IMG/VR virus record: IMGVR_UViG_2537561935_000012
Reading direction: 5' to 3' (one strand)
Origin: a virus
Lineage: Duplodnaviria; Heunggongvirae; Uroviricota; Caudoviricetes
Length of the DNA: 64,000 nucleotides
Position 1 is the stretch's first letter; each line of letters starts with the position of its first letter. Below are positions 2,388 to 26,084 of the stretch, one piece after another. The position numbers and the translations under genes are program-made. The notes beneath the pieces were generated by a model. It ran no database searches and was not told the DNA's origin. It saw only the letters and a program-made list of their open reading frames with translations.

Positions 2388-2936
2388 TGATGACGCCGGA
2401 AACTTCTTATAAAGAGTGGAAACAGCCACATCATAGATGATTGCAACCTGCTTACGGGGGATGCCCTTCTCCAGCAATCGCCGCATTTGCTGCCATGTTT
2501 CTTCCTGGTATTTAGGCCGACGCCCACCTATTCGACCTTCTGCGCGAGCTGCATCAAGTCCAGCTCGTGTACGTTCAACAATAAGTTCACGTTCCATTTC
2601 TGCCAGCGCCCCCATTACGTGAAAGAAAAAGCGCCCCATTGGTGTACTGGTGTCGATGGAGTCAGTGAGACTCCGGAAGTTAATGCCTCTGTCACGCAGC
2701 TCTTCCACCAGCACAACTAAGTGACGCATGCTGCGCCCAAGACGGTCTAACTTCCATACGACCAGGGGATCACCTCTGGAAAGCATACGGAGTACCTTTT
2801 TTAACCCAGGGCGCTCAGCCTTTTTGCCGCTCGCCTTGTCCTCAAAAATTAGCTCACATCCTGCGCTTTCAAGAGCGTTTCGTTGTAAAGCAGTGTTTTG
2901 TTCATTTGTTGATACGCGTACATAGCCAATTAGCAT
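2376..2936 (-). CDS. cin: Serine-recombinase DNA invertase (Cin/Gin/Hin family)
   Basis: 186 aa; N-terminal MLIGYVRVSTNEQ with catalytic serine at position 10, resolvase domain and C-terminal HTH; ATG start; sits next to tail-fibre variable segment. Confidence 0.9.
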   Translation of the reverse strand: MLIGYVRVSTNEQNTALQRNALESAGCELIFEDKASGKKAERPGLKKVLRMLSRGDPLVVWKLDRLGRSMRHLVVLVEELRDRGINFRSLTDSIDTSTPMGRFFFHVMGALAEMERELIVERTRAGLDAARAEGRIGGRRPKYQEETWQQMRRLLEKGIPRKQVAIIYDVAVSTLYKKFPASSFQS

Positions 2937-2994
2937 ATTTTCTGCTCACCATAGTTATTCATAGCAAGCTGCGGATTTTAATTAACAGAAACCA

Positions 2995-3345
2995 GTGTGT
3001 GTGGAAATCACAAAGTGCATACCGTGCCCCAATGATGTTTTATTGAAAAGCGGGGTTACTTTAATGTTTGATTTAACCATATTTTTTATAACCATCCTTG
3101 GCGGAGTGCATTCGTTTCTGAATGGGGTTCGTGAAAAACGTTACGAAGCGTCATGCAGGCAATTGATGGCCGAGTGTATTGCTGCCGTACTTGCAGGCTT
3201 TATTGGCATGTATTTCGCGGAATATAAGGGCATGGATGAAAGTCTTCAGAATTGCGTGACTATTATTTGCAGCATCAATAACAGGCTCATTCTTGAAAAG
3301 TTACAAAGGATTATCGATTCGTACCTCAATAGAAATGCCTCTTAA
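2995..3345 (+). CDS. Small membrane protein, holin-like (two predicted TM helices)
   Basis: ORF with hydrophobic stretches FDLTIFFITILGGV and CIAAVLAGFIGMYFA upstream of the lysis genes; start codon uncertain. Confidence 0.35.
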   Translation: MCVEITKCIPCPNDVLLKSGVTLMFDLTIFFITILGGVHSFLNGVREKRYEASCRQLMAECIAAVLAGFIGMYFAEYKGMDESLQNCVTIICSINNRLILEKLQRIIDSYLNRNAS

Positions 3346-7066: not shown

Positions 7067-10054
7067 ATGAGCTTAAGCGATCAGGTGGGGATGGCCACCA
7101 GCATAGAAACGCTGATCGAGCTGCTAAAAAACCTGCCCGATTACGGGCGGGTTTCGTATGTGGTGACAGCGAAGGGAGACGAGGTAAAAACAGCGTTTGA
7201 TATCGTCGATGCCTCAGCTCTTTTGGTATCCAATACTCTGGACGGGAAAATTAATCCGGACTATCCCCAGGAACTTCAGCCGCGCGACCGGACCCGCGCA
7301 TCCAGTATTCTTCAGGTTAACCAGATATCCAAGGATTTGCGGCCTGCTCAGCTTACCGACTCCGGTTTATCCAGCCATGGAGCGCCGATAATTGGTGAGG
7401 ACAATGCCGTTGAGTCAGGTAATGGACGAACCATGGGGATCATTAAAGCCTATCAGGACGGCAATGCGGATCGGTATCGGGAGTACCTGATTGAACATGC
7501 GAGCGAATTCGGCATACGTCCTGAAAAGGTTGAATCAATGACGGCTCCGGTACTGGTGCGCCGCCGGTTAACTAAGGTTGACCGCGTTCAGTTTGCCAAA
7601 GACTCAAATATTTCTGATCTTCAGGAAATGGCAGCCAGTGAAAAGGCTTTTGTTGATGCCGACAGCATAACACCGGCGATGATGGCGCTTTTTAACCCGT
7701 CAGAAAGCGGAGATCTGCTTAGCCGCAGTAATGACGCGTTTATTCGCGGATTTATGACGCAAGTTGGTGCCACACAGGCGGCTGGACTTGTAACTGAAGA
7801 TGGGCGACCAACACGGCAACTTGTTGACCGGATACAAAACGCGATCTTTGCCAAGGCATATAAGGATGCGCGCCTGGTAAGAATGGTTGCAGAAGAACCT
7901 GATCCGGATATGCGTAATGTTCTGACGGCGCTTAATGCGGCGGCCAATGATTTTGTCCAGATGCAGGCTTTATCAGGAGAAGCGCACAAGCAGGCTGTGA
8001 CAACTATCGTTGATAGCATTGAAACAGCGGATAGCCTCGATAAAAAGGCGCTGGCTGCATTGAAAGATGCGGGAGACCTGGTAAGGCAATCGAAGGAGTC
8101 AGGCCAACATATTACCGATGTTATTGCTCAGGGGGATATGTTCAGCGAAACAGCCCCGGAAGTGAAAGCACTCGCGTTGTTTATCGTCGCGAATAACCGT
8201 AGCGCGAAGCGTATGGCCACCGCCTTTAAGTTGATGGCACAACGTATCAATGATGAGTTACAGCACCAGGGCCAGGCGCTCGGGGATATGTTTGGCGGCG
8301 GTGATGTGTCGTTACAGGATATCCTTCGCCAGGTGTCTCAGGAACTGGAATACGAAGGCATGCAAGGGATATCCGGCGGTCTTTTCGAGTCCGTTTCCGG
8401 CGGTAGTTACAACGGTGTTGCTCCGTATACCAGTTTGCTATTACATCGGGCATCCGGCATCAAAGACATTATTCATCTGATCAGGCTGCTTTCCCGCACA
8501 GATCCCCAGGATGAACAGCTTGTACAAGTGCTTGCGCATTTTGTTCGAATGCCTGTTGCCGACGTAAAAAAATGGTGCCGATTATTCGGTATCAGCAATT
8601 CGTTACTTCGCGGATTGTTAAATCACGCATCCTCCCTTGGGCGCGACGGCTTTGATGAGATAGCGCAGGCGATAAAAAACGGAGATATGCCACCAGCTAT
8701 TGACTGGTTTTCCATTCGCCCAACCAGGGTGAAAGCATTCCTTAGCGCGGCGCATTCGGCATCACCATTGGCAGAAATGGTTCAGAGGTTGTCGCTCATA
8801 TTCACAGACCATACCGCGTTGGGTGATCTGACTCTGGACGAGATGAAAGAAGCCTCCATTCAGTGGGCCGATCAACAAAATGAGGTTAACTCTGACTTCT
8901 TGCCAGTATTCAGGAAGGCCGTTAGTAAAGCTGATGATGCCCGTGGAATTCTGAAGGCATTTAAGGCATTGCAAAGTCAGGTTAATAAACATGTCGGTGA
9001 TATCGATGGGGTAACGGCGGAAGGCAGGGATATCCTTAAAGAGCACGGCATAACGCCAGAGTTTATTGATGAGATCAGGACTGATATGCAGCGTGAGGTC
9101 GTATCGTCCCTGCAAATCGTAGCCATAGCGTTGGCGGATGCTAATCCGAAGTGTGCGGCCATTGTTAACCGGGTTATTGGTGATATTGAAGCATCGGAGG
9201 GCATGGGGGCGCTGAAACTCTTCCTTTCGCGAGCGTTTAATCCTAACGGCAATATTCTCCCTGGCATTATTGGTGAGGCTAAAAAGTATGTCAGTGAAGA
9301 AGAACTTGAGCAGCTTGACCAACTACTTAAGCGATTCTCATATAACCCGCAGACACGCTGGCAAATGAATCAGCGAAGTATGGGTTCGGTCCACGAGAAA
9401 GTGTTATCTGCCATGAACAGTGCGATCGCCAACTCATCCGTATCTGAAGAAAAAGCTCTTGAGTGGGCCGACTCTTTTATCACGGAAGAAGTGGAAGAAG
9501 CCCGCGCTGGACAGAATGGTGGGATAGACCTGCGCAAGGAACTTGCTGATATTTATCGCCTGACCGGCGGTAAAATTTCGACCTTATCAAAGGTGGTTCA
9601 CCACCAGGGAAGGGCATATGCAAATCTTAATGGTGTTGTTGCTGTCAATTTGAACGATGAAAATGCAAGTGCACTGTGGCACGAGCTGGGTCATCATCTT
9701 GAGTACAGTAACCCTGGTTTGTTAGAGAAAGCCCGGTCATTCCTGAAGGCCAATGTTGAAGGGGATAAACCATCTTTCGTTAATATCGGTGGGCGTGGCA
9801 AGCCTGAATGGTGCTTCAGATCTCGATTGAGTAATATTTATATGGCGAAGGTATCCCCGCCAGCCTCAGTAAGTAACACCGGGAAAATTCGGCAGAAATC
9901 CCCGACTATTTCCAAAACGTCAGCAACGGAAGTATTCTCTATGGCTCTTCAGTTGTATCATGACAAAGAGGCCGCTGCCGCATCACTGATGAATGGTGAC
10001 GGATTGCTGGAACTGTTATTAGGTGTGGCAAAGGAGCTAAATAATGCAGATTAA
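7067..10054 (+). CDS. ddrB: DdrB-like large dar-operon protein
   Basis: 995 aa, follows ddrA; synteny and size. Confidence 0.6.
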   Translation: MSLSDQVGMATSIETLIELLKNLPDYGRVSYVVTAKGDEVKTAFDIVDASALLVSNTLDGKINPDYPQELQPRDRTRASSILQVNQISKDLRPAQLTDSGLSSHGAPIIGEDNAVESGNGRTMGIIKAYQDGNADRYREYLIEHASEFGIRPEKVESMTAPVLVRRRLTKVDRVQFAKDSNISDLQEMAASEKAFVDADSITPAMMALFNPSESGDLLSRSNDAFIRGFMTQVGATQAAGLVTEDGRPTRQLVDRIQNAIFAKAYKDARLVRMVAEEPDPDMRNVLTALNAAANDFVQMQALSGEAHKQAVTTIVDSIETADSLDKKALAALKDAGDLVRQSKESGQHITDVIAQGDMFSETAPEVKALALFIVANNRSAKRMATAFKLMAQRINDELQHQGQALGDMFGGGDVSLQDILRQVSQELEYEGMQGISGGLFESVSGGSYNGVAPYTSLLLHRASGIKDIIHLIRLLSRTDPQDEQLVQVLAHFVRMPVADVKKWCRLFGISNSLLRGLLNHASSLGRDGFDEIAQAIKNGDMPPAIDWFSIRPTRVKAFLSAAHSASPLAEMVQRLSLIFTDHTALGDLTLDEMKEASIQWADQQNEVNSDFLPVFRKAVSKADDARGILKAFKALQSQVNKHVGDIDGVTAEGRDILKEHGITPEFIDEIRTDMQREVVSSLQIVAIALADANPKCAAIVNRVIGDIEASEGMGALKLFLSRAFNPNGNILPGIIGEAKKYVSEEELEQLDQLLKRFSYNPQTRWQMNQRSMGSVHEKVLSAMNSAIANSSVSEEKALEWADSFITEEVEEARAGQNGGIDLRKELADIYRLTGGKISTLSKVVHHQGRAYANLNGVVAVNLNDENASALWHELGHHLEYSNPGLLEKARSFLKANVEGDKPSFVNIGGRGKPEWCFRSRLSNIYMAKVSPPASVSNTGKIRQKSPTISKTSATEVFSMALQLYHDKEAAAASLMNGDGLLELLLGVAKELNNAD

Positions 10055-10361
10055 AATCGCAGCGCCATTAGGCGGAGATGCCATTATCGAATTTGATGAT
10101 AATGAAGAAGTTTCCGGGCGTTTAAGCATTATCTCCGGTGACATTACCGAGGACATGATCGCTGAAGCCATAGCTGGGGCAAATCCCAATAGCTATATGG
10201 GATTCGTTAACACCCTTGATGCTCCCGCAAGTGATGTTCTCCGAACGCTGCATCTTTACGCTGGCTGGTTTGTTGATTGGCCAGCAGTAGAGGGTGGCGA
10301 TGAGGACGACGACGATGACGACGATGATTTTGGGGATCATGTAGACCAGATCGTATATTGA
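10044..10361 (+). CDS. iddB: IddB-like small acidic protein (poly-Asp tail)
   Basis: 105 aa with C-terminal DEDDDDDDDD run; last gene of operon before terminator. Confidence 0.45.
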   Translation: MQIKIAAPLGGDAIIEFDDNEEVSGRLSIISGDITEDMIAEAIAGANPNSYMGFVNTLDAPASDVLRTLHLYAGWFVDWPAVEGGDEDDDDDDDDFGDHVDQIVY

Positions 10362-10363
10362 AG

Positions 10364-10392
10364 AAATCCCGCCAATCGGCGGGATTTTTTTT
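10364..10392. terminator. Bidirectional rho-independent terminator
   Basis: Hairpin AAATCCCGCC-AATC-GGCGGGATTT followed by T-run, between convergent iddB (+) and hxr (-). Confidence 0.65.
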
Positions 10393-11179
10393 AATCGCTT
10401 TCCACTTCTTCCGTGGTGTTTTCTTGCAGTTCTGTTAATGCAGCACGACATAGGTTCCGGGCATTGGCTATAGCCACACTTTTGACTTCATCCGTCATCG
10501 TGCAGGTAATGTACTGATCGAGTTCTTCAGCGCGGATGATGCTTTTGCCAATCAGAAACTGTATTTGCCAGAGCAGATCGGCATCCATAATCAGAATTTC
10601 TGCCGGGCCTTCAGGGCCAGCCGGGAAGGAAACATAAGACTGTTTGCCCAGGCCGATAACTCGACAACTTGCTTCAAGAATTGCGCGCTTGAGGTCTGAC
10701 TTTGTAACTGAAACAGGTTGATTTTCACCTGCGATTACGCCGTTGACATGGATGTGGAAAGGCATGTAGCTTGAAATTCGCTCTACTTTCCATACGCCAG
10801 CAAGCGATCCTTCATGCAGCACAATGGGGGTAACCGCGAGTTTCATCTCACCATATAACTGCTGGCAGATGGCTGGATTGCTGAATACATCCAAAGGTTC
10901 ACACTCAAACAGCGGCGCAATCTGCATGAGGTCCATCATGGTCATACCAGGGGTACGAGCAGTAATGAATCTGCGCATGCCAGTATCCATTGTGCGCCAG
11001 ATAGCTACACCATGCTTTTTGCTCACTTCTTCAGTGAAGCCAAGGTGGCACATGATGGTTTTTTCGATAGCCAGATCAGAGATAGAAACCTTTTCGCCAG
11101 GTACACCATCATTATTGATGGTCACTTCGACACTCTGGCCATTACGCAGGCGGTATTGAATTGCTTTAGTATTTTCCAC
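10391..11179 (-). CDS. hxr: Hxr-like protein, function unknown
   Basis: 262 aa ORF with GTG start and upstream GGAG; synteny with P1 hxr. Confidence 0.45.
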   Translation of the reverse strand: MENTKAIQYRLRNGQSVEVTINNDGVPGEKVSISDLAIEKTIMCHLGFTEEVSKKHGVAIWRTMDTGMRRFITARTPGMTMMDLMQIAPLFECEPLDVFSNPAICQQLYGEMKLAVTPIVLHEGSLAGVWKVERISSYMPFHIHVNGVIAGENQPVSVTKSDLKRAILEASCRVIGLGKQSYVSFPAGPEGPAEILIMDADLLWQIQFLIGKSIIRAEELDQYITCTMTDEVKSVAIANARNLCRAALTELQENTTEEVESD

Positions 11180-11185
11180 GTTAAA

Positions 11186-11863
11186 TCACTCCACTACAAA
11201 CCAGTCACATGCCAGTAAGTCGCATACAGAAGGCACCCACGGAACAACTACACCTTGTGCATTTTTTAAGGCGAAATAAGCACCATACGGAACGAGGTCG
11301 CCGGGGAAATATCCCTTAATGGCTTCCATTCGTGCCGGGTACTGTCCTTCAGGAACCAGCCAGCAGAATTGGTTTTCGCCGTTCCACCCGCGTCGAGCAA
11401 CTTTCTTGCCATCCTTCAGCCACATCAGCGCGTCAGAAAAGTCGGCTGCTTCAAGGTCGATTTCTTCTTGTGTGGTAATGATGCCACTGGCAGCAATAGT
11501 TACGTCCCTGGCTGTAATGAATGTCACCCCATTGTGACCTTCAATACTGAGCGATACCCCATTTTCGAAGAAGTCGTTAGTCCGACTAAAGCCTTCTTCA
11601 AATGTTTTTTCTGGTGAATAGGACAGAGATCCGTCCTCATAAGCGACCAGATATCCGCCAATTTCTGGTCGGTGTTTTTGCAAAAACATTTTATCAACAT
11701 GGACTTTTACCCCTTCTGGCTCAACGACTTCGATGTTGCAAAAAAGGACCACATCCATTAGGGCGATAATTTCGATATCTTTGATTTTTGAGGCGCGAAC
11801 TGTTTTATGGCTTTTGTATTTTGGAAGTGCCGTCAAAAGCTCTTTCGTTGTCATGTTATTCAT
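11186..11863 (-). CDS. Protein with C-terminal DUF2829 (Tad2-like) domain and an uncharacterised N-terminal domain
   Basis: ATG at 11863 with AGAGGAAAG RBS. C-terminal about 85 aa FSDALMWLKDGKKVARRGWNGENQFCWLVPEG ... DWFVVE fit the F-x-x-AL-x-x-LK-x-GKKV-x-R-x-GW pattern I associate with DUF2829/Tad2 sponge proteins. Confidence 0.5.
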   Translation of the reverse strand: MNNMTTKELLTALPKYKSHKTVRASKIKDIEIIALMDVVLFCNIEVVEPEGVKVHVDKMFLQKHRPEIGGYLVAYEDGSLSYSPEKTFEEGFSRTNDFFENGVSLSIEGHNGVTFITARDVTIAASGIITTQEEIDLEAADFSDALMWLKDGKKVARRGWNGENQFCWLVPEGQYPARMEAIKGYFPGDLVPYGAYFALKNAQGVVVPWVPSVCDLLACDWFVVE

Positions 11864-12060
11864 AGTCTTTCCTCTGCTTAAAACCTGATGTATTGCGCCT
11901 TCAGGTGGGTCAGGAATGTTTTCCCACCAGCGAAAGCAATATCTCGGGGTGTTCTTTTCGTGAAAAGCGCGTGCCATTGCCAACTTTGGCGTTTGTTTGC
12001 GAGTTCGTGCTTTTGTCGGCGTCTGGACCACCGCTTTTCTTTCAGTCGTTTTTTACACAT

Positions 12061-12549
12061 TCAAAACGGAATATCGTCGTCAAAGTCCATTGGAGGTTCG
12101 TTATTGGCGTTGCTCTGAGGTTTACCGCCACCACTGTATTGCTGGTGGTTTTGAGGTTGGTTTGATTGCCCCCAGCCATTTGAGGACTGTGAATCGTCAC
12201 GGCGAGCGCCGATCATTTGCATGGTGCCGCCCTGGCTGACGATAATTTCCGTCGTGTAACGTTCTACACCGGCGTCATCTGTCCACTTACGGGTTTTAAG
12301 TTTCCCTTCGATGTAGACCTGAGAACCTTTTCGTAAATACTCACTCGCAATTTCAGCAAGTTTTCCGAACAAAACGACTTTATGCCATTCTGTTTGCTCT
12401 TTCTGTTGGCCTGTTTGCTTGCCCCGCCATGATTCATTCGTTGCGATGCTGAGTCTTCCGACCGCGCCGCCATTTGGTATATACCTGATCTCCGGGTCTT
12501 GCCCCAGGGTACCAATCAGGATGACTTTGTTTACACCGCGTTGTGCCAC
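12061..12549 (-). CDS. ssb: Single-stranded DNA-binding protein
   Basis: 162 aa, OB-fold N-terminus, Gly/Gln-rich linker and acidic C-terminal tail DFDDDIPF; near-identical in pattern to E. coli/P1 SSB. Confidence 0.95.
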
Positions 12550-12568
12550 TTATCTTACCTAATAAAAT

Positions 12569-12585
12569 AAATTAATTAGAGCAAT
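12569..12585 (-). promoter_or_regulatory. C1 repressor operator-like site upstream of ssb
   Basis: AAATTAATTAGAGCAAT: one mismatch to the reverse complement of the P1 C1 operator consensus ATTGCTCTAATAAATTT. Confidence 0.6.
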
Positions 12586-12718
12586 AATGTATATCTTTGA
12601 AACGTAGCTAACAAGTGATTTGCATTATCCTGTGCCTTCTAAAGGGATCGAGTCAGTCGGTATTGGCTGTGAATGAGTGTTTGTCCTGGAGCGTAAAAAA
12701 TTCGCTTATGAGGTCTTT

Positions 12719-13276
12719 ATGAAGGGAAAAACAGCCGCAGGAGGCGGTGCAATTTGCGCTATCGCGGTGATGATTACCATCGTGATGGGTAATGGCAATG
12801 TGCGAACCAACCAGGCAGGGCTTGAGCTGATTGGTAACGCTGAAGGTTGCCGACGTGATCCATACATGTGCCCGGCGGGGGTATGGACTGACGGGATCGG
12901 TAATACACACGGGGGAACGCCGGGTGTGCGAAAAACCGACCAGCAAATCGCCGCTGATTGGGAAAAGAATATCCTGATCGCTGAACGCTGTATTAATCAG
13001 CACTTCCGGGGCAAAGACATGCCCGATAATGCCTTCAGTGCAATGACAAGCGCGGCATTCAATATGGGATGTAATAGCTTACGGACCTACTACAGCAAAG
13101 CGCGAGGCATGCGAGTAGAAACGTCCATCCACAAGTGGGCGCAGAAAGGGGAATGGGTGAATATGTGTAACCATCTCCCTGATTTCGTGAACAGTAACGG
13201 CGTGCCCCTGCGAGGTTTAAAGATTCGCCGTGAAAAAGAACGCCAGCTTTGCCTGACGGGACTGGTCAATGAATAA
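12719..13276 (+). CDS. lyz: Endolysin, T4-lysozyme-like with N-terminal SAR (signal-arrest-release) hydrophobic segment
   Basis: 185 aa from ATG 12719 (RBS GAGG); N-terminal AAGGGAICAIAVMITIVMG hydrophobic segment followed by lysozyme-like core; track ORF starts 42 nt earlier. Confidence 0.85.
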   Translation: MKGKTAAGGGAICAIAVMITIVMGNGNVRTNQAGLELIGNAEGCRRDPYMCPAGVWTDGIGNTHGGTPGVRKTDQQIAADWEKNILIAERCINQHFRGKDMPDNAFSAMTSAAFNMGCNSLRTYYSKARGMRVETSIHKWAQKGEWVNMCNHLPDFVNSNGVPLRGLKIRREKERQLCLTGLVNE

Positions 13277-13523
13277 ACTCCGGCAGCTCCGCCGACTTTC
13301 GACAATGAAGTTATCGCTGGCGGCGATAGTTTTCGACTCGATTTTCATGGCGGTATATGTGCTCAATGAGACGTGGCCACTGGAACCGCTATTGTATGCT
13401 GGGCTTCGGCTGTGCCTGACATTTTTGAGCATGGCTGCAAGATTGATGCAGCAGAAAGAAACCGCTTCAGATTGTCCACGCCGCGCGGTGCGCAAATATA
13501 TGGCACGCAGGCGAAGGCGATAA
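13269..13523 (+). CDS. Small lysis-accessory membrane protein (LydC/LydD-like)
   Basis: 84 aa, one TM segment, Arg-rich C-terminus, overlaps lyz stop. Confidence 0.4.
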   Translation: MNKLRQLRRLSTMKLSLAAIVFDSIFMAVYVLNETWPLEPLLYAGLRLCLTFLSMAARLMQQKETASDCPRRAVRKYMARRRRR

Positions 13524-23892: not shown

Positions 23893-25197
23893 CTATATAA
23901 ACTTAGATACAATATCGTGAATCTGTTGTAGCGGGATATCTTCCATCTCATTCTTAATAAGAGAGCGGTTAGATGCTGTCAGTGAAGGCCATTTTGTTTT
24001 CCAGGCTAGATATGCTCGCCATGAGTAGCCTGTTTCGTAAGGTTTATTCATATAAGTCATTGAGTGTTCAACCGCATGTATGTATTTTTTCTCAAAATTG
24101 GTTCCTTTTACTTCAAATAAACTACCGAAATAAATAAGCCATTTTGCCAGGTGTTCATACTGCTCCCATGCGCCAGGCTTTTTAGTAAGCTCTATTTTTT
24201 TATCTATTATATTACAAAAAACATTTAATACATTTTCATTATTCCAGCTATATCCAGATGATGAAATGGAGGAAATGATATGATAAAAAGAATCCTCTAG
24301 CTTCAAGAACTCTATTTTATACTCTCTTCCGTTTTTTATTACCGATTTGATTGAGTGCCTCAATTTGTCTTTTATTTTTTTTGCTTCTGGAATTTTATCG
24401 TTAAGTTTTCTAAAGAAATCAGATACCTCTGTTTTATCTATAACCCTAACCCCATAGCAGGAAAAATAGTAATCTTTAATAGGTTGCAATAGTTCCCCTC
24501 GGGAAACAAGGAAAATATTGGAGGACATTACGTTGTCCCGTGAAAATACCTTATATTCATTTATAATAGCCTTTAGGTTCGCGTCACTTAGAGAATAGCC
24601 AAGGATAACAATAGTGTTTTCATGTAGAACTGTGCTTAGTTTATTAGAAAAGTAAGAATTACCATTTATAAATCTGAAATAATCCTCGCTAGTAACAACC
24701 ATGTCTGATGGGGAGTCTATAGAACCGTGAACATGGTAGACTTTAACCTCACAATTATATTTTGGAATTGGCAGGCCGGGGGTGATTGTACAAGTTCGAT
24801 TCTCTCCAGCCAGCTTTTCTGCTAACTTGTCATAATTTGTCGTAATTACTTTAAATGTGTTTTCTTTGAAAAAGTCTTGAATATATTCAATTGATGGATC
24901 AAGTTCGATTGAGGCTATGATTTTCTCAATCTCTTGGTAAATATTTTTCCCCGAAAGTATAAGTTTTAGTGCAATAACCTGAGCAGCTTCTTCAAGGCTA
25001 AGGTCTTTTGCTTTTCCATCAGGAAATAATTCCTCTTTGAGTGAGTCACCATCCTTCAATAAACCGCACAGTTGCTCCAATAAAGATTGCCAACTTGGGG
25101 CTTTATCATCAGAAACAGCCTTTGAAAATCCAGTGCCTGTAAGAAAGCACAGCCTATGTGTAGCCGCTGCATAGGCAATTTCTATATACTCGCTCAT
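23893..25197 (-). CDS. SIR2-like (NAD-dependent deacetylase/NADase fold) protein with uncharacterised C-terminal domain; candidate anti-phage defence effector
   Basis: 434 aa, ATG with GGAG RBS. N-terminal motifs CFLTGTGFS (GAGxS-like), VITTNYD and VYHVHGS in the order and spacing of SIR2-family defence proteins. DNA is markedly AT-rich (about one-third GC in a sampled stretch) compared with neighbours. Confidence 0.7.
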   Translation of the reverse strand: MSEYIEIAYAAATHRLCFLTGTGFSKAVSDDKAPSWQSLLEQLCGLLKDGDSLKEELFPDGKAKDLSLEEAAQVIALKLILSGKNIYQEIEKIIASIELDPSIEYIQDFFKENTFKVITTNYDKLAEKLAGENRTCTITPGLPIPKYNCEVKVYHVHGSIDSPSDMVVTSEDYFRFINGNSYFSNKLSTVLHENTIVILGYSLSDANLKAIINEYKVFSRDNVMSSNIFLVSRGELLQPIKDYYFSCYGVRVIDKTEVSDFFRKLNDKIPEAKKIKDKLRHSIKSVIKNGREYKIEFLKLEDSFYHIISSISSSGYSWNNENVLNVFCNIIDKKIELTKKPGAWEQYEHLAKWLIYFGSLFEVKGTNFEKKYIHAVEHSMTYMNKPYETGYSWRAYLAWKTKWPSLTASNRSLIKNEMEDIPLQQIHDIVSKFI

Positions 25198-25253: not shown

Positions 25254-25895
25254 TTATAGATAATTTCCTTTTCCTGTTAATACTCCCTTAGGCACCTGTT
25301 TTTGTGCCAGCGTTTGGGTGCCGCGAATTATGTTAATCAGAGGGCTTAGTAACGATGGTTCCTGGCGTGCCTCAACTTCTCCAGCCATTGCCCTGATGTA
25401 GTCGGCGCTGGCAACGTTGTTGTATTCCGTCGCAAAGCAACATAGTAACGTCAGAACATGCTCTGTCGTTATTTCGCTCCAGTTGATGTTGAAAAATTCA
25501 TCGCCTTTTTTATCGTGTTCGGAATCGAAGATGCTTTGGTGGAGGATGTATTTGCCGGATTCCTTGCGCGGTAACTTGATTGCTTTCTGGCGTTCCAGCT
25601 CCTTATAAATCTGCATTGCCTCAATTAGTACCGGCCTGCCGTTCATGAAGGGATCGCGCAACCTTACACGCTGGCCAACTCGACCAGTAATAAAGCTGTT
25701 TTCCTCTTCCACCAGCACGATAAAACCCTTTTCCTCTTTTTCTCGCAATTCGCGCAGCAGCTGGAGTTCCATATCGCGGCGGCGTTCAGGGTAGCTGGTC
25801 CGCTCAGCCATTATTAGCTCATTGTTGATCCATGCAGCAGTCATTGACGCCGGTTTGCCGACGCTCATCGAAACAACGCATATTTTCTTATCCAT
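25254..25895 (-). CDS. Hypothetical protein, backbone-like GC; at the position of P1 mat
   Basis: 213 aa from ATG 25895 with AGGGGG RBS (track ORF extends to GTG 26042); same strand and 56 bp upstream of the SIR2-like gene. Confidence 0.45.
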   Translation of the reverse strand: MDKKICVVSMSVGKPASMTAAWINNELIMAERTSYPERRRDMELQLLRELREKEEKGFIVLVEEENSFITGRVGQRVRLRDPFMNGRPVLIEAMQIYKELERQKAIKLPRKESGKYILHQSIFDSEHDKKGDEFFNINWSEITTEHVLTLLCCFATEYNNVASADYIRAMAGEVEARQEPSLLSPLINIIRGTQTLAQKQVPKGVLTGKGNYL

Positions 25896-26084
25896 AGCGC
25901 CCCCTACAAAAAAGAAAAGCCACCAGCGGCGGCTTAGCAATACAACTGAAGGTAGCGCCCGGTACTCAGACTGTGCCGTCCATGGAATATTTGAAAAGGG
26001 ATCCATCCGTACCGGGCATGTGATGATTCTGACTGAAGTCACTTGTCAGTTGTCAATTATTTCAGATTAAAAATAATATATTTA

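Follow-up and report, generated by a model that had tools for sequence, protein, structure and literature searches.

The stretch of tailed-phage DNA considered here (IMG/VR virus record IMGVR_UViG_2537561935_000012; 64,000 nucleotides, the whole of which is called 'the window' below) carries, on the minus strand between ssb and a homologue of the P1 gene isaA, a 225-codon gene whose product is predicted to join a Tad2 (DUF2829) signal sponge to an N-terminal oligonucleotide/oligosaccharide-binding (OB) fold from an unrelated family. P1-type phage-plasmids (Punavirus) are collinear with this region. Positions 10300-12700 match Salmonella phage SJ46 along their full length with 97.5% identity, and the 93.7-kb Salmonella plasmid NZ_CP030188.1 with 99.7% identity. 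Gene order was read by comparison with the annotated sequences of P1, P7, SJ46 and Ro157c2YLVW, and the locus comprises the following features, with domain boundaries in amino acids (aa).

7067-10054, plus strand: ddrB, assigned by comparison with annotated relatives
10044-10361, plus strand: hxr homologue, 105 aa, convergent and outside the operon (95% identity to the P1 hxr region; PHROG 2292)
10391-11179, minus strand: isaA homologue, 262 aa, a translationally coupled downstream gene (95.5% DNA identity to P1 isaA; PHROG 2326, E 3e-151)
11186-11863, minus strand: Tad2-type putative anti-defence gene, 225 aa plus stop (open reading frame, start codon context, frame conserved in relatives, PHROG 872)
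11189-11461, minus strand: predicted Tad2/DUF2829 sponge domain, aa 135-225 (PF11195, PDB sequence matches, Foldseek, identity to Tad2_68)
11462-11575, minus strand: variable, beta-rich acidic linker, aa 97-134, predicted to be disordered in the monomer
11576-11863, minus strand: predicted Dec-like OB-fold domain ('N-domain'), aa 1-96, without a Pfam family
11864-12060, minus strand: intercistronic leader between ssb and the Tad2 gene, with a ribosome-binding site (RBS), GAGGAAAG, at 11867-11874 (alignment with P1 and SJ46)
12061-12549, minus strand: ssb, first gene of the operon (PF00436, E 4.7e-39; annotated as ssb in P1, P7 and SJ46)
12569-12585, minus strand: C1 repressor operator for the ssb operon, equivalent to Ossb/Op21 (one mismatch to ATTGCTCTAATAAATTT; Ossb is annotated at the corresponding position in P1 and P7)
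12677-13276, plus strand: lyz, assigned by comparison with annotated relatives

A preliminary description of this locus, made from the letters alone, had assigned the C-terminal ~85 aa of the protein to DUF2829, and a hidden Markov model (HMM) search bears this out. The PF11195 Tad2-like profile matches with 81.7 bits (cutoff 25; E 5.7e-23) over profile positions 2-73 of 73, and RefSeq likewise names the protein 'DUF2829 domain-containing'. Among proteins of known structure, the best sequence match is ModTad2 (9EIB/8V3E; E about 7e-21, 46% identity), and further matches are to HgmTad2/AcrIIA7 (E 6e-12 to 2e-10), SPO1 Tad2 (E 6e-10) and SptTad2. We also modeled the full protein as a monomer with AlphaFold2, using an alignment of 37 homologues. 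The resulting model reaches predicted local distance difference test (pLDDT) values of 85-91 over aa 139-225 and shows the Tad2 fold, with an N-terminal helix (alpha1, aa 142-150), an antiparallel beta-sheet and a beta2-beta3 insertion. When this model is compared with solved structures by Foldseek, the top 24 matches are all Tad2 structures (ModTad2, HgmTad2, SPO1 Tad2 and SptTad2; E 1.8e-9 to 8e-6), with target-normalized template-modeling (TM) scores of 0.62-0.90; for 9eib the values are E 1.8e-9 and TM 0.76-0.90.

The putative ligand pocket, as defined for Tad2 proteins in general, is conserved as well. Published contacts are W25, N26, W73, S76 and D79 in SPO1 Tad2, and W21, N22, G23, W87, S90 and D93 in HgmTad2. 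These pocket residues align to W160, N161, G162, W209, S212 and D215 of the window protein, which form the conserved motif GWNG...W-x-x-S-x-x-D. Taken together, profile matches and predicted fold identify the C-terminal domain as a bona fide Tad2/DUF2829 domain. A sponge function is well supported by homology, and the suggestion that the gene encodes a Tad2-like signal sponge accords with the Pfam match, the predicted fold, the pocket residues and the positive result reported for Tad2_68, a 67%-identical homologue.

The coding region is shorter than initially proposed. The mechanically called open reading frame (ORF) is intact and runs on the minus strand from 11186 to 12031 (281 aa, GTG start), and the preliminary description had taken all of 11186-12060, a span that is not a multiple of three, as coding. 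An ATG at 11863 is preceded by the good RBS GAGGAAAG, and translation from this codon yields the 225-aa product. Across 22 related loci the 225-aa frame stays unbroken (one locus gives 247 aa), and four of these 22 carry in-frame stops within the 56 codons upstream of the ATG. All full-length homologues in protein databases begin at the Met of 11863, the RefSeq call in phage Ro157c2YLVW is 678 nt long, and PHROG 872 spans the whole 225-aa protein (E 9e-60). Because the 225-aa start is supported and the upstream codons are broken, the earlier span takes in a 197-nt intercistronic leader; the coding region is 11186-11863, and the upstream extension of the 281-aa ORF is untranslated leader. An Rfam scan of window positions 9500-13500 returned nothing close to gathering scores. 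A very basic ORF of 60 aa lies in another frame of the leader (11878-12060, minus strand), beginning at the ssb stop with a TGAATG overlap and ending just before the RBS of the Tad2 gene. Codon differences from SJ46 and Ro157c2YLVW amount to only 3-8 per segment, a number at which synonymous and non-synonymous counts are uninformative.

Comparison with P1 shows that the gene is absent there. P1 matches the window at 11860-12800 and at 10391-11175, and the intervening positions 11176-11859 have no P1 counterpart. In the alignment, P1 starts isaA directly from the same leader, RBS and ATG (...GAAAAGACTATGACAGCACAAAATACTAAA). This clean indel at the isaA start indicates that the Tad2 gene is a 684-bp present/absent cassette rather than a gene disrupted by IS1. 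The gene had been placed at the site where P1 carries IS1, and the window had been taken as a possible intact form of that locus; neither idea survives the alignment. In P1, IS1 sits between isaA and isaB/hxr, about 800 bp from the position of the Tad2 gene, and IS1 plus isaB occupy what is here a gap of 31 bp from the 3' end of isaA to hxr. P1 IS1 therefore does not interrupt the Tad2 gene, and the presence or absence of the gene is independent of it. The observation that no IS1 is found here does stand, and it extends across the whole window, from which the P1 isaB region is missing too.

The interval between ssb and hxr (window positions 10361-12060) is a cargo hotspot in P1-like elements. 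Its cargo is isaA-IS1-isaB in P1, the nmpC porin gene in P7, an additional 95-aa ORF in Ro157c2YLVW and a HipA-family toxin gene in some plasmids. The whole arrangement, including the Tad2 gene, is present in 106 of the 621 plasmids that match the region. According to a 2025 preprint, DefenseFinder detects Tad2 in 56% of the phage-plasmids of the P1 group and in 93% of those of the D6 group.

The genomic context suggests early expression. The C1-operator-like site that had been noted ahead of ssb is confirmed as ATTGCTCTAATTAATTT at 12569-12585 (minus strand), and shuffled sequences give an expectation of 0 by chance. Between ssb and the Tad2 gene we found no terminator-like site on the minus strand, and a promoter scan returned no additional sigma-70-like site for the Tad2 gene itself. 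A spacer of 6 nt separates the TGA stop of the Tad2 gene from the GTG at which the isaA homologue starts. The proposed operon of ssb, this gene and hxr is wrong in its third member, which is the isaA homologue; hxr lies on the plus strand in convergent orientation. As a separate observation, the window contains eight 17-mers that resemble C1 operators with 0-2 mismatches (at 12569, 28782, 28865, 43787, 49552, 59403, 59414 and 62936), compared with 0 expected by chance, and these eight sites would fit a P1-type immunity circuit that is complete within the window.

The N-terminal part of the protein is of a different kind. The preliminary description had perceived there a weaker echo of the Tad2 pattern, and hence a possible tandem or pseudo-dimeric sponge. 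However, aa 1-135 have no Pfam match even at E<=10, including to PF11195, and hhalign gives a probability of 0.7% for a relationship between the N-domain and Tad2-domain profiles. The N-domain is modeled instead as an OB barrel (pLDDT 90.6; predicted TM score, pTM, 0.81). When a profile of 20 N-domains is searched against the PDB, the sole match is the decoration protein Dec of phage L (E 3.1e-5; residues 13-89 against Dec 14-91), and in the Foldseek search Dec ranks straight after the Tad2 structures (E 1.2e-3). The N-domain is 28% identical to Dec, and no other solved protein has real sequence similarity to it. Profile and model together thus identify the N-domain as an OB fold related to Dec, with no Tad2 profile similarity, and the same results (the Pfam null, the hhalign probability and the OB barrel) rule out a second DUF2829 copy. 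We also considered Lockin, Sequestin, Acb2 and Acb4 as identities for aa 1-96, and rejected them for want of any sequence or fold match.

Between the two domains, aa 97-138 have pLDDT values below 50 and are predicted to be disordered in the monomer. The linker proper (aa 97-134) is beta-rich and of low confidence in the monomer, as is the Dec spike, but it has no sequence similarity to Dec, and searches of the PDB and Pfam gave no match, including to the Dec spike and to tail-fibre repeats. Among P1-like homologues the linker exists as 2-4 interchangeable alleles, and in many homologues it is absent or replaced.

The N-domain belongs to a large family. A word-index homology search with the N-domain alone retrieved only near-identical fragments, and we therefore used an exhaustive HMMER search of 1.84 billion representatives, which yielded 4,967 clusters (taken at 50% identity) at E<=1e-3 and 2,648 at E<=1e-10. 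A related-locus search with a narrow alignment returned mostly P1-like loci, too few for a neighborhood statistic. The family is recognized by an OB barrel of ~85 aa at the N-terminus with the motifs YK(C/S)HK.V.A..I and GGYLV.Y..GY.SYSP..FE.GY, and many members consist of the domain alone (83-105 aa). The window N-domain scores 116.9 bits on the family HMM, which was built from 88 diverse members, and it keeps all near-invariant positions except two: residue 79 is Ser, a position at which Tyr is present in at least 90% of family members, and Tyr is replaced by Phe at position 92. As a side observation, four giant proteins (P0129, P0130, P0131 and P0151; 1,900-4,600 aa) contain 12-28 repeats that match only the C-terminal half of the N-domain profile, at about positions 42-84, which hold the GGYLV...Y.S motif.

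Several sponge families are among the partners of this family. Among the best 150 members, 88 are longer than the domain, and these carry Sequestin (PF21825) in 16 cases, Tad2 in 12, Acb4 (PF13876) in four and an Acb2/Tad1 hairpin in one. Triple fusions also occur (N-domain with Tad2 and Sequestin, and N-domain with Sequestin and Acb4), always with the OB fold first. A fifth partner is found in RyR Tad (Pectobacterium phage CB1 gp68; RyR, ryanodine receptor), whose N-domain matches the family HMM with 32 bits over residues 1-16 and 36-78, running through the motifs LKQYQSHKLVWAA and GYLVVY...YHSWSPQGVFDAG. The OB-fold family thus heads fusions with five sponge families: Tad2, Sequestin, Acb4, Acb2/Tad1 and RyR-Tad. 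In IMGVR_UViG_3300045253_000203, a stand-alone N-domain ORF (locus L021, 2471-2770) directly precedes, by 24 bp, an Acb2 gene that also stands alone (2794-3024; PF24729, E 4e-15), and the pair, which is a 'split' version of the fusions, is located just before the terminase gene. Klebsiella phages of the SopranoGao group share an N-domain and linker, behind which some have Tad2 and others Sequestin (PF21825; L015 2501-3025 versus P0096), and this alternation between siblings indicates module swapping at a fixed junction. Stand-alone copies of the N-domain reside mostly among early, replication or accessory genes, and some are found beside portal or MuF genes.

The same modularity is evident within the P1-like group. 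Across 19 P1-like homologues, the two core segments of Tad2 hardly vary, the N-domains form seven clusters, and the beta2-beta3 insertion exists as three main types of 40, 48 and 31 aa, the last of which carries EWKG rather than GWNG. Types of N-domain, linker and insertion co-occur in nearly all combinations, and these allele combinations offer a natural series for mapping ligand specificity.

The downstream isaA homologue, which has no match in Pfam, PADLOC, NCBIfam or the PDB, is a candidate either for a partner of the Tad2 gene or for an anti-defence gene. In phage D6 an isaA homologue likewise comes after a DUF2829 gene, but this gene is shorter and the pair is found at another locus; the gene 3' of Tad2-Sequestin fusions on two other contigs of ~77-95 kb is no IsaA relative. 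Two arrangements of dUTPase with Tad2 were seen in passing. In phage D6 the dUTPase and the Tad2 domain are encoded by adjacent genes (L005, 4005-4499 and 3550-3990), and in some E. coli phage-plasmids they are fused (PF00692 plus PF11195; P0056, 241 aa, on an 88.6-kb contig).

We consider it probable that this gene serves a P1-like phage-plasmid as an anti-defence cassette of two modules, in which an early anti-Thoeris Tad2 sponge is combined with an accessory OB fold. The Tad2 gene would be transcribed together with ssb once C1 repression is gone, whether on infection or on induction. Its Tad2 domain would form tetramers, as other Tad2 proteins do by pairing two V-shaped dimers so that pockets arise between protomers, and would sequester ADP-ribose-derived signals made by TIR proteins, most likely 3' cyclic ADP-ribose (3'cADPR) and/or histidine-ADP-ribose (His-ADPR), such that Thoeris effectors would never be activated. 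The OB fold may dimerize or scaffold the sponge, in the way seen for the related N-domain in crystals of RyR Tad; alternatively, it may add a second inhibitory activity.

Several points weigh against this proposal. Roughly a quarter of all sponge homologues in the screen that included Tad2_68 inhibited none of its seven systems, and none of the tested Tad2 proteins carries the N-domain. Ligand specificity varies between close Tad2 relatives (type I, II and IV Thoeris, CBASS and Pycsar), and sequence therefore cannot give the exact signal. The case for co-transcription with ssb is drawn from how P1 is annotated and from the missing terminator. In addition, this copy of the N-domain may be degenerate because S79 replaces a near-invariant Tyr, and a trimer like that of Dec would clash with the symmetry of a Tad2 tetramer.

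The proposal that competes most directly with an accessory role is that the OB fold is an autonomous module, either a sponge for another and possibly new immune signal or a protein that binds some component of defence, and that the protein neutralizes two pathways in the manner of Acb4-Tad2 and Tad2-Sequestin fusions. Very often the family is encoded by itself, as an ORF of 83-105 aa, and for that reason must have a function of its own. Most of the stand-alone copies are in early or accessory regions, although some reside in head-morphogenesis modules. The N-domain is fused or adjacent to five sponge families, which is the same fusion logic that revealed Sequestin; polar residues are highly conserved family-wide (HK..RA..., GGY, DGY.SYSP..FE.GY); and OB folds are classic binders of small ligands and oligonucleotides. 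In contrast, the sole tested relative, residues 1-86 of RyR Tad, is inactive against type I Thoeris and dimerizes in the crystal, and in the window copy the near-invariant Tyr is replaced by S79. We therefore regard a dual inhibitor as possible but rather unlikely. The wider proposal, that the Dec-like OB fold represents a new and very widespread family of phage anti-defence modules, with the window protein as a dual inhibitor and phage L Dec as a structural offshoot, we offer as speculative and doubtful in this full form. If Dec is instead taken as the guide to function, then the N-domain and its beta-rich linker might tether the Tad2 domain to a P1-type virion. Such a role could draw on the sequence similarity to Dec noted above, on the spike of Dec, which like aa 97-138 is disordered in the monomer, and on two traits of the family: some members adjoin portal or MuF genes, and one member is annotated as a capsid decoration protein. 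However, the gene resides in a C1-controlled early operon with ssb rather than in a late structural operon, and P1 does without it, so it is dispensable for the virion. The linker has no sequence similarity to the Dec spike and is absent or replaced in many homologues, a sponge on the outside of the capsid could not reach cytoplasmic signals, and the capsid of Ralstonia phage GP4 consists of gp1 and gp2 only, without the family member gp05. Given the operon and the absence from P1, a capsid-decoration role is unlikely, and tethering of a sponge to the virion by this route seems very improbable to us.

A function unrelated to Thoeris could also be envisaged, in which DUF2829 acts on Cas9, as proposed for AcrIIA7, or buffers the phage-plasmid's own SIR2-type system. 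AcrIIA7/HgmTad2 does belong to the same family, but the authors who studied it showed it to be a sponge for glycocyclic ADP-ribose (gcADPR) and cGG, and Cas9 binding was never demonstrated. To our knowledge, E. coli and Salmonella normally lack type II-A CRISPR. The second variant draws on the first of two genes that lie between darB and cre, at the place taken in P1 by the type III res/mod genes:

23893-25197, minus strand: SIR2_2 protein, 434 aa (PF13289, E 2e-23; best matches PADLOC PDC-S25 and the SIR2 part of ThsA; weak Dsr1/Dsr2 similarity)
25254-26042, minus strand: ORF of 262 aa adjacent to the SIR2 gene, without matches

Their position at the P1 res/mod site suggests that this pair is probably a swapped-in defence system, and the pairing of a SIR2-like gene with a signal sponge that had been highlighted earlier holds as a co-occurrence, since both genes are in the window. 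The SIR2_2 protein, however, is encoded 12 kb away from the Tad2 gene and has a SIR2 domain only, with no recognizable signal-sensing (SLOG/Macro) domain, and no TIR gene was seen beside the SIR2 gene. We regard either non-Thoeris variant as very improbable. We thus return to an early anti-Thoeris sponge with an accessory OB fold as the account that best suits the locus.

Part of this picture is already known. Tad2 has been recorded in P1/D6 phage-plasmids, RefSeq applies the DUF2829 label, and a 67%-identical homologue has been tested; the Tad2 portion therefore adds little. The predicted OB-fold partner is the new lead. In a literature comparison that left out Tad3-Tad8, we met no text that describes the N-domain as recurring alongside sponge families or that relates it to Dec. 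An OB fold at the head of five independent sponge-family fusions, and also alone beside a sponge gene, is the same kind of clue that led to Sequestin, which was found via Pfam families that occur in fusions with Tad2 and with Acb4 (Tal et al., bioRxiv 2025.07.12.664507). The N-domain could not have surfaced in that screen, because the search used Pfam only and the N-domain has no Pfam model. If the N-domain has its own target, then it could reveal a new immune signal or mechanism of inhibition, and if it is only a dimerization module, then it would explain how phages assemble modular multi-sponge proteins. The anatomy of the P1 cargo hotspot is also corrected, with a putative anti-Thoeris cassette placed exactly at the isaA start and under C1 control.

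Among characterized sponges, the closest relative of the Tad2 domain is Tad2_68, a metagenomic protein (IMGVR_UViG_3300014659_000001; bioRxiv 2025.08.24.671296, Table S2) with 67% identity over 82 ungapped residues. The two share the whole beta2-beta3 insertion (YPARMEA.KG.F..D.VPY.AYFALKNAQG.VVPW) as well as the pocket motifs. Tad2_68 is an 87-aa stand-alone protein, whereas the window protein has 134 more N-terminal residues, comprising the OB fold and the linker. In the three score columns of that study (transformation in 96-well plates, collapse in liquid culture, validation by plaque assay), Tad2_68 is listed as n, N/A and y against type I Thoeris and as y, y and y against type II Thoeris, and it is negative against the other five systems (bioRxiv 2025.08.24.671296, Table S2). 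The best PDB match by both sequence and fold, ModTad2 (MoTad2, from a Myroides odoratus prophage; PDB 9EIB, 8V3E), has an insertion of the same length and is a tetrameric sponge, but unlike the window protein it has no N-terminal domain. MoTad2 sequesters His-ADPR and cUMP/cCMP and does not inhibit type I Thoeris. SPO1 Tad2 and HgmTad2 (AcrIIA7) share the Pfam family, the fold and the W-N-G / W..S..D pocket with the window domain, but they are only ~33% identical to it, have other insertion regions and are both stand-alone proteins. In HgmTad2 a long beta2-beta3 insertion forms a second pocket for cyclic dinucleotides, and the interface that makes this pocket is predicted to bind cUMP in MoTad2.

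Comparisons that include the N-terminal module are fewer. Dec (PDB 6E3C) has the OB-fold domain in common with the window N-domain, but it is a structural protein of the late class and bears a trimeric beta-helix spike, whereas the window gene is predicted to be early, is fused to a sponge and encodes a post-OB segment without sequence similarity to the spike. RyR Tad has the same architecture as the window protein, with an OB-family N-domain ahead of a signal-sponge domain. In RyR Tad, however, the sponge module is a helical domain resembling ryanodine-receptor Repeat12 rather than Tad2, the N-domain is a shorter variant, and the protein is a dimer. That N-domain forms a domain-swapped dimer in the crystal and, when alone, has no activity against type I Thoeris (bioRxiv 10.64898/2026.06.04.730250). 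Finally, the multi-sponge fusions Acb4-Tad2, Tad2-Sequestin and Acb4-Sequestin (Tal et al., bioRxiv 2025.07.12.664507) string anti-signaling modules together in one polypeptide in the same way as the window protein appears to do.

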